DNA of 64,000 nt from Escherichia coli. Its GTDB lineage: Bacteria > Pseudomonadota > Gammaproteobacteria > Enterobacterales > Enterobacteriaceae. The notes under the pieces were generated by a model. It was not told the origin of the DNA, ran no database searches, and worked only from the letters and a program-made list of their open reading frames with translations. Below, piece after piece: positions 70-59,235 of this stretch; within the stretch, counting starts at the first letter, position 1, and the number at the start of each line of letters is the position of its first letter. The DNA lies in the NCBI RefSeq assembly GCF_024700885.2, contig NZ_CP117016.1. One strand, written 5' to 3'. The position numbers and the translations under genes are program-made.

Positions 70-1514
70 TATGGTCTTCCTATTAATTTACTGTGGGATA
101 CAGCATTGATGTCATCTACAACCATCTGGAATGTCGGTTGGCGTCCTTCAAAGCGTGCGCGTTCCGCAACGTAATCGTGGTGGAGGTCGAGAATATCTTT
201 TGGCAATGGAACGGCTCCGGCTTCCAGTACGCGTATCGCGCCGGTGTTGTCACGGACCGGAAGAATTTTGCCCGCGTTGCAGGCGGCTGGCGCAAACGGC
301 ACATCCAGTACGCCCGCTTCAAATGCCAGCACCGTACCGCGCGCAATATCACCATTACCCAGTTCGAACACTTTATTCAGTACCGCGCGAACCTCGCTCT
401 TAATCAGTTCAATTTCCAGTTCAACCGCAGGGCAAGGCGGGAATTTCTGCTCGTTGACCATGTTGAGCATCTGGCGGGAGGCTTTCAGCCCCTGAATGTT
501 GGCAGCGGCAGTCGGGATGCCCCAGGCTTCGTGCGGACTTTTGGTGATGACTTTGGTGGCACCAGACATCCCCGCGACGGCTGCACCCCAGGAGATAATG
601 GCGAACGCTTTCGATTCGTCTTCCGGAAAGCCGCCCATCCACTGGTGAAACACGGTACTTAATTCATAGTCGGTATAGCCATAGCTCTGAAAGTATTCGT
701 GTGCAAGTTCACGCAGAGACTGGATCGCCGCGACATCCTGCGTCAGGCTGCCGACCTGTCCATAACCAACGGTGATAGATTTCACACCCTGTTCCAGCGC
801 CAGTAATCCTTCGATTATCGCGATAGAGTGCGAGATAAACGGCGGGATCAGCGTACCCGTTAGTGGGCCAAACGGTTCGCGGTTGATGCGGATCCCGTGT
901 TCTTCATACATCCCCATTAAACGATCGCAGTACTGCCAGTCGCGGATCGATTTTTCCAGCGTTACGCGCTTGGCATACGGAATATTGTAGGAAATGCCGC
1001 CGCCTTCATAACTGGTAAAGCCGCTGGCCATCGAGATTTCAGCCAGCAGACGCGCATCTGGCGTGCCGTGGCGGATCTGTAGCGGTTTTTGCAAAGTTTC
1101 GGTGAGGCGACGGCAAGCTGCGACGCCGTGGTTAACTACCGGTAAACCGTTCAGTTTAGAGGTTCCGGCTTCGATGGATTTTTTAATCCCTACAGCCGCT
1201 TCTTCGTACCGATTCAGACGGGTATATGCATCGATGGTGCTCGGCAGCAGATCGCACTCTTCTTGTGGTGTTTTCAGTAGTTCGATGTGTTCGTCCATCA
1301 GCGCCACGCCTGCGCGCGGTTGGCTAAGAGTTTTACCTTCCTTGTCTGCTTTCAGCAGGGCAAGAGAGAAGCGTTTATGCTCAGGAATGGTTTGTTGGTA
1401 TTTAACGCCATCTTCAAAGTTTTCAACATCCTTGCCGGTTTCCCAGGTTTTCAGTACCTGTTGCCGCTCGGTCATGAATTCGTCATGGGTTAATTTCTTA
1501 TTTCGAAGTTCCAT
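69..1514 (-). CDS. glmE: glutamate mutase (methylaspartate mutase) E/epsilon subunit
   Basis: 481-aa ORF; sequence recognised as glutamate mutase E chain; operon context with B12-binding S subunit and L component. Confidence 0.85.
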   Translation of the reverse strand: MELRNKKLTHDEFMTERQQVLKTWETGKDVENFEDGVKYQQTIPEHKRFSLALLKADKEGKTLSQPRAGVALMDEHIELLKTPQEECDLLPSTIDAYTRLNRYEEAAVGIKKSIEAGTSKLNGLPVVNHGVAACRRLTETLQKPLQIRHGTPDARLLAEISMASGFTSYEGGGISYNIPYAKRVTLEKSIRDWQYCDRLMGMYEEHGIRINREPFGPLTGTLIPPFISHSIAIIEGLLALEQGVKSITVGYGQVGSLTQDVAAIQSLRELAHEYFQSYGYTDYELSTVFHQWMGGFPEDESKAFAIISWGAAVAGMSGATKVITKSPHEAWGIPTAAANIQGLKASRQMLNMVNEQKFPPCPAVELEIELIKSEVRAVLNKVFELGNGDIARGTVLAFEAGVLDVPFAPAACNAGKILPVRDNTGAIRVLEAGAVPLPKDILDLHHDYVAERARFEGRQPTFQMVVDDINAVSHSKLIGRP

Positions 1515-14583: not shown

Positions 14584-15129
<546 letters not shown>

Positions 15130-15138
15130 GAGAATTGC

Positions 15139-15930
15139 ATGAGCAGTAACTTCAGACATCAACTATTGAGTCTGTCGTTACTGGTTGGTATAGCGGCCCC
15201 CTGGGCCGCTTTTGCTCAGGCACCAATCAGTAGTGTCGGCTCAGGCTCGGTCGAAGACCGCGTCACTCAACTTGAGCGTATTTCAAATGCTCACAGCCAG
15301 CTTTTAACCCAACTCCAGCAACAACTCTCTGATAATCAATCCGATATTGATTCCCTGCGCGGTCAGATTCAGGAAAATCAGTATCAACTGAATCAGGTCG
15401 TGGAGCGGCAAAAGCAGATCCTGTTGCAGATCGACAGCCTCAGCAGCGGTGGTGCAGCGGCGCAATCAACCAGCGGTGATCAAAGCGGTGCGGCGACATC
15501 AACGACGCCGACAGCTGATGCTGGTACTGCGAATGCTGGCGCGCCGGTGAAAAGCGGCGATGCAAACACGGATTACAATGCAGCAATTGCGCTGGTGCAG
15601 GATAAATCCCGCCAGGATGACGCAATGGTGGCATTTCAGAATTTCATCAAAAATTACCCTGATTCAACTTACCTGCCAAACGCCAATTATTGGCTGGGTC
15701 AGTTAAACTACAACAAGGGTAAAAAAGATGATGCGGCGTATTATTTTGCTTCGGTAGTGAAAAACTATCCGAAGTCACCGAAGGCTGCAGATGCGATGTT
15801 TAAAGTCGGCGTCATCATGCAGGACAAAGGTGACACCGCAAAAGCGAAAGCCGTATACCAGCAGGTTATCAGTAAATACCCTGGTACTGATGGCGCTAAA
15901 CAGGCGCAAAAACGTCTGAACGCGATGTAA
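15139..15930 (+). CDS. cpoB: cell division coordinator CpoB (YbgF), TPR protein
   Basis: 263-aa protein, recognised. Confidence 0.9.
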   Translation: MSSNFRHQLLSLSLLVGIAAPWAAFAQAPISSVGSGSVEDRVTQLERISNAHSQLLTQLQQQLSDNQSDIDSLRGQIQENQYQLNQVVERQKQILLQIDSLSSGGAAAQSTSGDQSGAATSTTPTADAGTANAGAPVKSGDANTDYNAAIALVQDKSRQDDAMVAFQNFIKNYPDSTYLPNANYWLGQLNYNKGKKDDAAYYFASVVKNYPKSPKAADAMFKVGVIMQDKGDTAKAKAVYQQVISKYPGTDGAKQAQKRLNAM

Positions 15931-16094: not shown

Positions 16095-16170
16095 GGGTCG
16101 TTAGCTCAGTTGGTAGAGCAGTTGACTTTTAATCAATTGGTCGCAGGTTCGAATCCTGCACGACCCACCA
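16095..16170 (+). tRNA. lysT: tRNA-Lys (anticodon UUU)
   Basis: 76-nt cloverleaf GGGTCGTTAGCTCAGTTGGTAGAGC...ACGACCCACCA with CTTTTAA anticodon loop. Confidence 0.95.
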
Positions 16171-16198
16171 ATCGCTAAGGTGGACGCGGTAGTAAAAC

Positions 16199-16270
16199 GT
16201 GAAGGATAACGTTGCGTCAGCAACGGCCCGAAGGGCGAGACGAAGTCGAGTCATCCTGCACGACCCACCA
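16199..16270 (+). repeat. spacer repeat ending in a copy of the tRNA-Lys 3' terminus
   Basis: About 70 bp GTGAAGGATAACGTTGCGTCAGCAACGGCCCG...TCATCCTGCACGACCCACCA; second copy at 16694-16763. Confidence 0.7.
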
Positions 16271-16305
16271 CTAACCTAGTTAGTTGTAGTATCCAGCGTA
16301 GTATC

Positions 16306-16381
16306 GGGTGATTAGCTCAGCTGGGAGAGCACCTCCCTTACAAGGAGGGGGTCGGCGGTTCGATCCCGTCATCACCCACCA
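16306..16381 (+). tRNA. valT: tRNA-Val (anticodon UAC)
   Basis: 76-nt cloverleaf GGGTGATTAGCTCAGCTGGGAGAGC...CATCACCCACCA. Confidence 0.95.
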
Positions 16382-16383
16382 CC

Positions 16384-16459
16384 GGGTCGTTAGCTCAGTT
16401 GGTAGAGCAGTTGACTTTTAATCAATTGGTCGCAGGTTCGAATCCTGCACGACCCACCA
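16384..16459 (+). tRNA. lysW: tRNA-Lys (anticodon UUU)
   Basis: Identical to lysT. Confidence 0.95.
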
Positions 16460-16510
16460 CTAATTACGGTGGGTTCGGTGGAAGTAGTTTGTAGTATCCA
16501 GCGCAGTATC

Positions 16511-16586
16511 GGGTGATTAGCTCAGCTGGGAGAGCACCTCCCTTACAAGGAGGGGGTCGGCGGTTCGATCCCGTCATCACCCACCA
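16511..16586 (+). tRNA. valZ: tRNA-Val (anticodon UAC)
   Basis: Identical to valT. Confidence 0.95.
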
Positions 16587-16589
16587 CTC

Positions 16590-16665
16590 GGGTCGTTAGC
16601 TCAGTTGGTAGAGCAGTTGACTTTTAATCAATTGGTCGCAGGTTCGAATCCTGCACGACCCACCA
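16590..16665 (+). tRNA. lysY: tRNA-Lys (anticodon UUU)
   Basis: Identical to lysT. Confidence 0.95.
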
Positions 16666-16693
16666 ATTTTAACATCAAACTCAGATGTTAAGC

Positions 16694-16763
16694 GTGAAGG
16701 ATAACGTTGCGTCAGCAACGGCCCGTAGGGCGAGCGAAGCGAGTCATCCTGCACGACCCACCA
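16694..16763 (+). repeat. spacer repeat ending in a copy of the tRNA-Lys 3' terminus (second copy)
   Basis: Near-identical to 16199-16270. Confidence 0.7.
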
Positions 16764-16811
16764 ATTTTAAAGATTGGTTCCGAGTAGAAATCTTTCAGGT
16801 AACACCCGTAT

Positions 16812-16887
16812 GGGTCGTTAGCTCAGTTGGTAGAGCAGTTGACTTTTAATCAATTGGTCGCAGGTTCGAATCCTGCACGACCCACCA
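16812..16887 (+). tRNA. lysZ: tRNA-Lys (anticodon UUU)
   Basis: Identical to lysT. Confidence 0.95.
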
Positions 16888-16920
16888 TCCTGAATGATTA
16901 AAGCAGCATAATCCCGCAAG

Positions 16921-16996
16921 GGGTCGTTAGCTCAGTTGGTAGAGCAGTTGACTTTTAATCAATTGGTCGCAGGTTCGAATCCTGCACGACCCACCA
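16921..16996 (+). tRNA. lysQ: tRNA-Lys (anticodon UUU)
   Basis: Identical to lysT. Confidence 0.95.
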
Positions 16997-17000
16997 ATGT

Positions 17001-17030
17001 AAAAAAGCGCCCTAAAGGCGCTTTTTTGCT
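17001..17030 (+). terminator. rho-independent terminator of the tRNA operon
   Basis: GC hairpin AGCGCC-CTAAA-GGCGCT followed by TTTTTT. Confidence 0.8.
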
Positions 17031-17273
17031 ATTCAGGCATCTCTCAATTTCAATTCTTAACCCAGATGACATACTCCGCGTTTGCTGCGTAAACAACTTT
17101 ACGTCGGAGAAATAAGACGCAAAGTGTGGCATTCGGCATCTCATACGTAATTCGAGTGACTTTTCCCCACCATTCGACTATCTTGTTTAGCATATAAAAC
17201 AAATTACACCGATAACAGCGAATATTACGCTCATGTCGGTTTTAACGTTAAGCCTGTAAAACGAGATGGTAAG

Positions 17274-59079: not shown

Positions 59080-59154
59080 GGGTCAGTCGTATAAAGGTCA
59101 TTACGGAAGGCTGTTAACCTTCTTATCGTGGTTCGAGTCCACGCTGTCCCGCCA
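59080..59154 (+). tRNA. phage-encoded tRNA, anticodon GUU (Asn-type), slightly non-canonical
   Basis: Manual fold: acceptor GGGTCAG/CTGTCCC (one mismatch), D-loop with GG, anticodon arm GAAGG-CTGTTAA-CCTTC, T-arm CGTGG-TTCGAGT-CCACG, discriminator G, CCA. Confidence 0.55.
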
Positions 59155-59159
59155 AATAT

Positions 59160-59235
59160 GCTGGTTTAGCTCCAATGGTAGAGCAGTCGCCTTGTAAACG
59201 AATGGGTAGCGGTTCAAGTCCGTTAACCAGCACCA
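59160..59235 (+). tRNA. phage-encoded tRNA, anticodon UGU (Thr-type), weak anticodon stem
   Basis: Manual fold: acceptor GCTGGTT/AACCAGC perfect, D-arm GCTC-CAATGGTA-GAGC, T-loop TTCAAGT, CCA; anticodon stem has two mismatches. Confidence 0.5.

Follow-up and report, generated by a model that had tools for sequence, protein, structure and literature searches.

The best described relatives of the elements considered here are the 178-bp repeats of the tyrT-tyrV operon (RtT/rttR, RF00391), which lie 3' of a tRNA and on its strand, form a distal tandem array of variable copy number and finish with a copy of the 3'-terminal 18-19 nt of the adjacent tRNA, CCA included, which also supplies one strand of the closing stem. 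The first tyrT repeat is released from the tyrT transcript as the rtT/RttR RNA (PMC3318445; PMC4986893), a discrete and stable RNA of 171 nt. In K-12 this repeat is annotated as a small RNA gene, rttR, with which tpr overlaps; rttR (1567-1737 of locus L002) starts 8 nt past tyrV and ends at the CCA base of the RtT match. According to PMC4986893 and PMC7542023, Bosl and Kersten (1991) reported that the tyrT rtT RNA affects the response to starvation for amino acids. RtT-family RNAs are also visible on Northern blots in Actinobacillus, in which the RtT RNAs Arrc20 and Arrc21 adjoin tRNA genes (PMC4986893).

The lysT operon of Escherichia coli is transcribed as a single polycistronic RNA, which RNase P takes apart with the assistance of RNase E (PMC4176162). 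When all four lysT-operon spacers were probed on Northern blots, only large intermediates were described in RNase P mutants, and in wild-type K-12 "surprisingly few" intermediates and no stable spacer-derived RNA (PMC4176162). The same paper never mentions repeats in these spacers, and nothing on lysT spacer copies was found in the literature on rttR, the RtT sRNA and tRNA-gene archaeology.

Two repeats in the spacers of the lysT operon

In this study, a 64-kb stretch of E. coli DNA (hereafter the window) was analysed. The lysT operon, flanked by cpoB and nadA, is located about 16 kb into the window and contains seven tRNAs (16095-16996; ARAGORN and Rfam) in the order Lys-Val-Lys-Val-Lys-Lys-Lys. 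Two elements of about 70 nt each were recognized within it, element 1 in the lysT-valT spacer and element 2 in the lysY-lysZ spacer, and both terminate in an exact copy of the final 18 nt of tRNA-Lys (Table 1). This 18-mer (ATCCTGCACGACCCACCA) has seven exact matches in the window, namely the five tRNA-Lys 3' ends and the ends of the two elements, and none in 100 shuffles. The elements have in common a 48-nt block (from 16192 and 16687, respectively) with 94% identity; between 16199/16694 and the CCA, a single hairpin-loop substitution and a 2-nt length change in the last hairpin are the only differences. The remainder of the two spacers shows no mutual relationship.

A sequence-only reading of this region had pointed to two near-identical spacer elements, and the common block and the exact 18-mer at both ends bear this out. 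It had also correctly recognized that the tRNA-Lys 3' end is copied with its CCA, although the copy is 18 nt long and not 17, the quoted string (TCATCCTGCACGACCCACCA) begins with TC where tRNA-Lys has GA, and the similarity starts a few bases upstream (16192/16687) of the element starts that it gave.

Table 1. Features of the lysT operon in the window that are related to the two elements.
Feature	Position	Strand	Basis or remark
tRNA-Lys(UUU) lysT	16095..16170	+	ARAGORN; Rfam tRNA 79.2 bits; last 18 nt (16153-16170) are the left direct repeat of element 1
Type-A leader of element 1	16171..16197	+	Variable spacer (aligned with leaders of other species) with a small hairpin
Element 1, short-form RtT	16198..16270	+	Rfam RtT; fold; pair counts in alignment
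P1 of element 1	16198-16207 (CGUGAAGGAU) x 16253-16262 (AUCCUGCACG)	+	One A.G mismatch
Hairpins of element 1	P4 16210-16225; P5 16226-16236; P6 16236-16250	+	Tandem G.A in P6
tRNA-derived 18 nt of element 1	16253-16270	+	ACCCACCA is the unpaired 3' tail
Empty site, lysW 3' end	16442..16459	+	K-12 has a 98-bp unit here (type-B leader, element and 18-nt repeat)
tRNA-Lys(UUU) lysY	16590..16665	+	Last 18 nt (16648-16665) are the left direct repeat of element 2
Type-B leader of element 2	16666..16692	+	9-bp hairpin, 16668-16676 x 16684-16692
Element 2, short-form RtT	16693..16763	+	Rfam RtT 55 bits; alignments; pair counts
P1 of element 2	16693-16702 x 16746-16755	+	
Hairpins of element 2	P4 16705-16720; P5 16721-16731; P6 16731-16743	+	
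tRNA-derived 18 nt of element 2	16746-16763	+	
Empty site, lysZ 3' end	16870..16887	+	K-12 has a 99-bp unit here (type-A leader, element and 18-nt repeat)
lysQ 3' end and operon terminator	16979..17029	+	One or two additional 156-bp units in K-12 and other strains; 0 in the window

The reading frames within the elements are short, start with GTG or TTG and encode 20-54 aa, and none of them is a plausible gene. A coding function was considered and rejected: there is no tpr-like ATG frame in the window copies (K-12 tpr is MRSFDQGSTRAPARERCRRQRPEGRSAQR), and the similarity to tpr, i.e. the string RPEGR in the 20-aa TTG frame MRQQRPEGRDEVESSCTTHH, results from the P4-P5 hairpins being read in the same frame. 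A consensus scan for promoters and terminators gave no plus-strand hits inside the elements and weak minus-strand matches at P4 only; because it also missed the obvious lysQ terminator, it was given no weight. In the RefSeq (PGAP) records inspected, only tRNAs are annotated in the lysT-operon spacers and the short copies are unannotated, while the PGAP features named "RtT sRNA" are longer copies located 3' of lysQ in some strains (loci L128, L130 and L132).

Membership of the elements in the RtT family

The RtT model of Rfam matches positions 16102-16270 with 60.6 bits and 16597-16763 with 55 bits, the curated gathering score of RF00391 being 45 bits. Both elements are located 3' of a tRNA, on the same strand and inside a tRNA transcription unit. 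The residue-level alignment reveals that model positions 1-50 align with the tRNA-Lys upstream, not with the spacer, and are followed by a 44-nt insertion; when the spacer was searched without the tRNA, element 1 matched model positions 51-130 with 42.5 bits (E=1.5e-7), which is slightly below the gathering score. We regard it as almost certain that the elements are homologues of the RtT repeat, the homology extending over only the 3' two-thirds of a tyrT-type repeat.

Both elements lack the 5' domain of tyrT repeats (P2 with GGUUCGA, P3 with tandem G.A), and in them AUAAC joins the 5' strand of P1 to P4. As far as their sequences tell, the elements are truncated, "short-form" RtT repeats without this domain, and deletion of P2-P3 from a long form would give what looks like the short form. 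The window copies share with the tyrT repeats their position relative to the tRNA, homologous P4-P5-P6 hairpins, the copied tRNA end with its role in the closing stem, and the variable copy number. They differ in the lack of the T-arm-like P2 and of P3, in length (~72 nt versus ~130 nt) and in being single copies in internal spacers, whereas tyrT RtT is a distal tandem array.

In K-12, the four tyrT copies reach 133-137 bits and the lysT operon contains five RtT matches. Copies of the Pro, Arg(CCG) and long Lys types were confirmed as RtT by Rfam with 75-101 bits; the short-form Arg(ACG) relatives at locus L016 gave no RtT match at the gathering threshold. The short copies of the window pass this threshold only via the adjacent tRNA; with a model built for the short form, they would be annotated cleanly.

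The family dates back to the sequencing of the tyrT repeats and has its own Rfam entry. As the elements are short copies of this known family, the finding of two repeats is largely ordinary, and as a rediscovery it matters little. Three points may be worth keeping: that short forms can be told apart from long ones, the rule governing their 3' ends and the 0-5-copy polymorphism within E. coli, which are described below.

Secondary structure and covariation

Element 1 alone folds with -26.7 kcal/mol (z -2.77) and element 2 alone with -24.0 kcal/mol (z -1.73), and the two architectures are identical. Together with their leaders the respective values are -35.5 kcal/mol (z -2.22; 16171-16270) and -33.2 kcal/mol (z -3.50; 16666-16763); in the minimum-energy fold, GGUGG of the type-A leader can pair with CCACC of the 3' tail. 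In P1, (C)GUGAAGGAU pairs with AUCCUGCAC(G), the 9-10 nt at the start of the tRNA-derived segment, and the stem contains a single A.G mismatch. P4 is CGUUGC-NNNN-GCAACG, P5 is GCCC-GNA-GGGC, and P6, embedded in CGAG...CGAG, carries the motif C-G/G.A/A.G/G-C in the short form.

This structure was evaluated in an alignment of 41 non-identical short-form sequences, which were taken from the Lys and the Arg(ACG) operons of several genera. In these, 86.4% of cells are paired, compared with 28-45% when the partners are slid, and none of 500 shuffles reached a covariation as high; P6 exchanges GC, AU, CG and UA pairs. P4 and P5 are invariant, partly since they were fixed by the survey pattern, and are neutral as evidence.

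In the long forms, the P1 pairs at tRNA positions 59-65 are present in 64-73 of the 75 sequences, position 64 exchanges AU, GC and CG pairs, and pairing fades past tRNA positions 66-67, for which reason P1 is generally a stem of 7-10 bp and not a full acceptor/T minihelix. The same holds for the short-form P1 of Lys, because of its uncompensated A.G mismatch and length of only 9-10 bp. A full minihelix (12-bp acceptor and T-stem stack) was thus dropped as a general rule, given that pairing fades after 66-67 in Lys, Tyr and Pro copies, although such a stack does hold for Arg(ACG) (10/12 pairs) and Arg(CCG) (11 bp). The 3' strand of the long-form P2, together with UUCGA, resembles the 5' half of the T-arm of the cognate tRNA, and P3 has the same C-G/G.A/A.G/G-C motif as P6 (G.A in 74/76 and A.G in 73/76 sequences), with covarying flanking pairs. 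In a strand-asymmetry test for selection on RNA versus DNA, G.U and A.C were counted 47 versus 65 times in the long forms and 9 versus 2 times in the short forms.

In spite of the copied tRNA end, the elements are neither tRNAs nor pseudo-tRNAs by the programs used, and the tRNA-like folding considered in the sequence-only reading was not found: ARAGORN predicted no tRNA other than the seven true ones, and the tRNA model of Rfam did not match the elements even at E<=1.

The 3' ends of RtT copies and the neighbouring tRNAs

A survey with a P4-P5 core pattern covered at least 120 loci, with one genome per species, to which the window and other loci were added. Among the matches listed there are at least 185 cores, 148 of which have a same-strand upstream tRNA within the fetched locus, and 126 of these 148 end in at least 12 nt of the 3' end of that tRNA. 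The printed examples match 18-19 nt, which corresponds to tRNA positions 58/59 to 76. Among the matches listed, the common core is carried by seven isoacceptor classes: (i) Lys(UUU), at least 38 copies, (ii) Tyr(GUA), at least 31, (iii) Arg(ACG), at least 26, (iv) Pro(UGG), at least 19, (v) Pro(CGG), at least 8, (vi) Pro(GGG), at least 2 and (vii) Arg(CCG), at least 2.

The 5' strand of P1 varies with the tRNA. It is GGGGAAGGAU in Tyr copies, CGUGAAGGAU or GUGCAGGAU in Lys copies, GGGAGGAU in Arg(ACG), AGAGGAU in Pro and CGCCUGGAGGG in Arg(CCG) copies, and in one Lys variant the 3' strand of P1, CCUAUACG, stands opposite the 5' strand CGUAUAGG. In most copies, judging from the aligned strands, the end is that of their own tRNA and a compensating 5' strand closes the multi-hairpin fold. 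The occurrence of this arrangement in seven isoacceptor classes provides an experimental handle on RtT function.

Cores of one tRNA class are 0.83 identical between genomes, while cores of different classes within one genome are 0.77 identical, which equals the background; copies inside one operon are 0.93 identical. These values suggest that the lineages are old and bound to their loci, with homogenisation acting locally, rather than that copies have recently spread between loci. Four pattern matches (Pseudomonas L034, Chloroflexi L048, Prevotella L071 and Polaromonas L080) are embedded in ordinary sequence and were set aside as likely chance hits.

Copy-number polymorphism of the lysT operon in E. 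coli

BLAST coverage counts are confounded by the repeated pieces of this operon, and copy numbers were determined by direct inspection of seven strains. They are: (i) MS20654 with no copy, (ii) O157:H7 Z1768 with one short and no long copy (six tRNAs), (iii) the window strain with two short and no long copies, (iv) an ST69 isolate with two short and two long, (v) strain W with three short and one long, (vi) RMDEC364 with three short and one long (six tRNAs) and (vii) K-12 with four short and one long. All element sites are polymorphic among these strains, with a total of 0-5 copies. Since one natural isolate (MS20654) has zero copies and every site is polymorphic, the elements are dispensable for the operon.

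The sequence-only reading had proposed a comparison with K-12. Relative to K-12, exactly 98 bp are missing from the window after lysW and 99 bp after lysZ, with identical flanks in the alignments, and each missing piece is one unit of leader, element and 18-mer, bounded by the 18-mer. The window is also devoid of the 156-bp unit that follows lysQ, composed of a terminator, a degenerate long form and the 18-mer. The long copies 3' of lysQ resemble the window copies in belonging to the same operon, in their 18-nt tRNA-Lys end and in being present or absent as whole units; they differ in the duplicated terminator, the long 5' domain and their absence from the window strain.

The 3' end of the tRNA and its 18-bp copy are direct repeats around a unit of ~98-100 bp, and recombination or slippage between these repeats would add or remove exactly one unit. 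Gain and loss in one-unit steps by such events are very likely; the outcome is directly visible in the alignments, and the mechanism is suggested by the position of the repeats. The operon is a clear case of structural polymorphism in whole units, with 0-5 copies and either 6 or 7 tRNA genes, which is probably driven by the 18-bp repeats together with the tRNA-length repeats and which matters for genome assembly and strain typing.

Proposed processing and alternative explanations

Taken as a whole, the elements are probably self-folding, short-form RtT spacer modules within the single precursor of the lysT operon. According to the folds and pair counts, P1 closes a junction of the three conserved hairpins P4, P5 and P6 and leaves ACCCACCA-3', which is identical to the acceptor end of tRNA-Lys, unpaired. 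By analogy with tyrT, the excision of the flanking tRNAs by RNase P and RNase E would set each element free along with its leader, and 3' trimming would stop at the tRNA-type ...ACCA end, as the 3' end of K-12 rttR suggests. The expected products would be RNAs of ~90-100 nt with 3' ends at 16270 and 16763. For this model of processing and 3'-end formation, which is drawn from tyrT, we see about even chances. As the wild-type blots describe few intermediates (PMC4176162), the short-form RNAs may be degraded quickly. Of the origins suggested in the sequence-only reading, processed spacer elements came closest to the truth, in view of the homology to the tyrT repeats, from which the rtT/RttR RNA arises.

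Several other explanations have to be weighed against this one. That the elements are decayed tRNA-Lys pseudogenes, left by tandem duplication or unequal crossing-over and kept by chance and by gene conversion of the 3' end, with no role as RNA, would agree with the identity of their last 18 nt to tRNA-Lys and with the strain-variable number of tRNA genes in the operon (6 or 7). It would also fit the long forms, whose internal strand with UUCGA is similar to the 5' half of the cognate T-arm and could form 4.21 of 5 pairs with their own T-stem 3' strand, and the Arg(ACG) copies, whose P1 5' strand equals the fused acceptor-5' and T-stem-5' strands at 10/12 positions; a tRNA-derived origin of the outer parts of the element is plausible on these similarities. 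However, the ~45-nt P4-P5-P6 core is not tRNA-like and was seen by neither ARAGORN nor the tRNA model, and as one core is shared between seven tRNA classes it cannot have arisen by independent decay from each tRNA. Compensatory changes in the helices and the 83% identity of cores across genera within a class are not expected from neutral decay either, which makes this explanation unlikely. The notion of duplication remnants put forward in the sequence-only reading thus holds for the exact one-unit copy changes between 18-bp repeats and for the T-arm-like 5' half of the long forms, but not for the conserved core. A selfish or neutral DNA repeat of the REP/MITE kind, with hairpins acting as DNA and the shared T-loop and 3'-end sequences serving as homology for spread and thereby keeping it next to tRNA ends, could account for the precise gain and loss between direct repeats, the tandem arrays (tyrT; loci L006 and L032), the tRNA-unlinked P4-P5 module of Alcanivorax and Marinobacter and the lack of a G.U over A.C bias. 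It is improbable in view of the 126 matched copies, all of which are downstream of the tRNA and on its strand (in a survey that sought same-strand upstream tRNAs only), the strand-specific tandem G.A motifs, the clustering of cores by tRNA class and not by genome, which gives no sign of recent spread, and the fact that no associated transposase was seen. Integration into a tRNA gene duplicates the tRNA 3' end, and the elements do resemble attL/attR sites in having such a direct repeat flanking an insert. The 18-nt copy might accordingly be the attR of a tRNA-Lys integrative element that has since been almost wholly deleted, and in the viral contig L004 an integrase does adjoin a partial tRNA-Pro, after which come RtT copies. 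These copies, however, are on the host side of the junction, and the scan of viral contigs for the core returned five loci, all of them tRNA/host junctions or tyrT fragments, so that the matches are not element-borne and a phage origin was rejected. Within the window, only ~82 bp separate the repeats, without an integrase or foreign genes, the elements lie within an operon between tRNA genes, and what lies between the repeats is a core of conserved structure that recurs behind seven isoacceptors, each with its own 3' end, in many genera. The integrase-mediated events mentioned in the sequence-only reading are hence extremely improbable.

The elements could also give rise to a trans-acting regulatory RNA which binds readers of uncharged tRNA 3' ends (RelA, RNase T/PH or the CCA-adding enzyme) or acts as a sponge, and for which the matched end would be required. 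The covarying structure conserved across Enterobacterales, the match to the cognate 3' end (126/148 cores among the matches listed), the Actinobacillus RtT RNAs seen on Northern blots (PMC4986893) and the starvation effect of the tyrT rtT RNA that Bosl and Kersten (1991) are cited for (PMC4986893; PMC7542023) speak in its favour. We nevertheless consider it rather unlikely, because natural E. coli strains carry 0-5 copies, no stable lysT-spacer species has been reported (PMC4176162), no target or partner is known and papers citing RtT call its function unknown (PMC7542023). A function in trans, such as an effect on the stringent response, is known only as a report on the tyrT rtT RNA and for the lysT copies would be hypothetical. 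A more specific, and likewise unlikely, proposal is that RtT RNAs are mimics of the tRNA acceptor end, re-fitted to each host tRNA by the copied 3' 18-19 nt and the compensated 5' strand of P1, and acting on 3'-end readers. Candidate partners would be RelA, 3' exonucleases, the CCA-adding enzyme and tRNA-targeting toxins, the lysT and argV-type short forms would be a distinct, unmodelled architecture, and the four T-stem-related strands of the long form could constitute a two-state switch (1:4 with 2:3 versus 1:2 with 3:4).

Related modules outside the RtT family

3'ETS-leuZ is a small RNA from a tRNA spacer, which works as a base-pairing sponge with Hfq. It is a segment cut from a tRNA precursor by processing nucleases, as the elements would be if they are excised, but the elements are defined by the copied tRNA 3' end and the multi-hairpin fold rather than by base-pairing targets. 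The consensus of Aggregatibacter sRNA 22 (RF02902) contains a P4-P5-P6 module like that of the elements; with a match of only 13.4 bits against a gathering score of 39.8, the homology concerns the core module alone. The P4-P5 module is also present, unlinked to tRNA, in a tandem repeat of Alcanivorax and Marinobacter.

Copy-number variation in the lysT operon

Alignment of the region downstream of lysQ revealed a difference between the window and K-12. In K-12 (positions 1854-2050 of the lysT operon locus), a 156-bp duplication is present 3' of lysQ, which consists of a terminator, a degenerate long-form RtT repeat (46.7 bits in the Rfam search) and an 18-nt copy of the tRNA-Lys end, whereas the window (16997-17030) carries one terminator and lacks the 156-bp copy. 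In some E. coli strains two copies are found 3' of lysQ, labelled by PGAP as "RtT sRNA". In O157:H7 (Z1768) and strain RMDEC364 one tRNA-Lys gene is absent, which leaves six tRNA genes in the operon instead of seven, so that tRNA gene number is variable as well as RtT copy number. A separate feature of this region is a patch between the lysQ terminator and the upstream region of nadA (window approx. 17050-17140; alignment A2, columns 226-320) that is only about 70% identical to K-12, with near-identical flanks; either recombination in this tract or hypervariability of the segment may account for it.

Alternative folds of the long form

The long-form alignment, together with the K-12 tyrT locus (1211-1995), revealed four strands related to the T-stem: (1) the 5' strand of P1, (2) the 5' strand of P2, (3) the 3' strand of P2, with UUCGA, and (4) the tRNA-derived 3' strand of the T-stem. 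With four such strands, two mutually exclusive folds would in principle be possible, i.e. 1:4 with 2:3 or 1:2 with 3:4. For the tyrT copy, RNA folding gave 1:4 with 2:3 as the minimum-energy structure.

Related modules and a prophage at a tRNA gene with RtT repeats

The consensus of the Rfam family RF02902 (Aggregatibacter sRNA 22) includes the P4-P5-P6 module of RtT, which suggests that the two families overlap in a common core; the window itself (16187-16264) scores only 13.4 bits with RF02902. The P4-P5 module (GTTGCnnnnGCAACGGCCCGnAGGG) was also found within a different repeat, with no tRNA gene nearby, in five loci (L039-L041, L059 and L097) of Alloalcanivorax, Marinobacter and Alcanivorax. 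There it is flanked by hairpins of the AAAATCGCCGGGAGCGATTTT type and GGCCGCC...GGCGGCC. In L097 the repeat is arranged in tandem, and an Rfam scan of this locus gave no RtT match for these copies.

RtT repeats are also present in a viral contig (L004, approx. 950-1450, minus strand), which ends with the C-terminus of an integrase, followed by the 3' part of a partial tRNA-Pro(GGG) gene, two RtT copies and a terminator. Both copies end in the 3' end of the adjoining tRNA-Pro(GGG). This contig is a prophage integrated at a tRNA gene bearing RtT repeats, and RtT pseudo-3' ends could be used as secondary attachment sites.

Other elements of the window

Other elements identified in the window
Element	Position	Strand	Remarks
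CpoB/ybgF thermometer (RF02782)	15030-15168	+	142 bits; directly 5' of cpoB
tRNA-Asn(GTT)/tRNA-Thr(TGT) pair	59080-59235	+	5-nt gap

The thermometer is an already known cis-regulatory element, and a weaker match to this family was also found in a Zophobihabitans locus (L062). The tRNA pair is located in the late region of a lambdoid prophage (Q antiterminator, holin and endolysin). Three phages, HK446, Kapi1 and mEp506, share approx. 98% identity with this region, and the same tRNA-Asn and tRNA-Thr are annotated in two of them.
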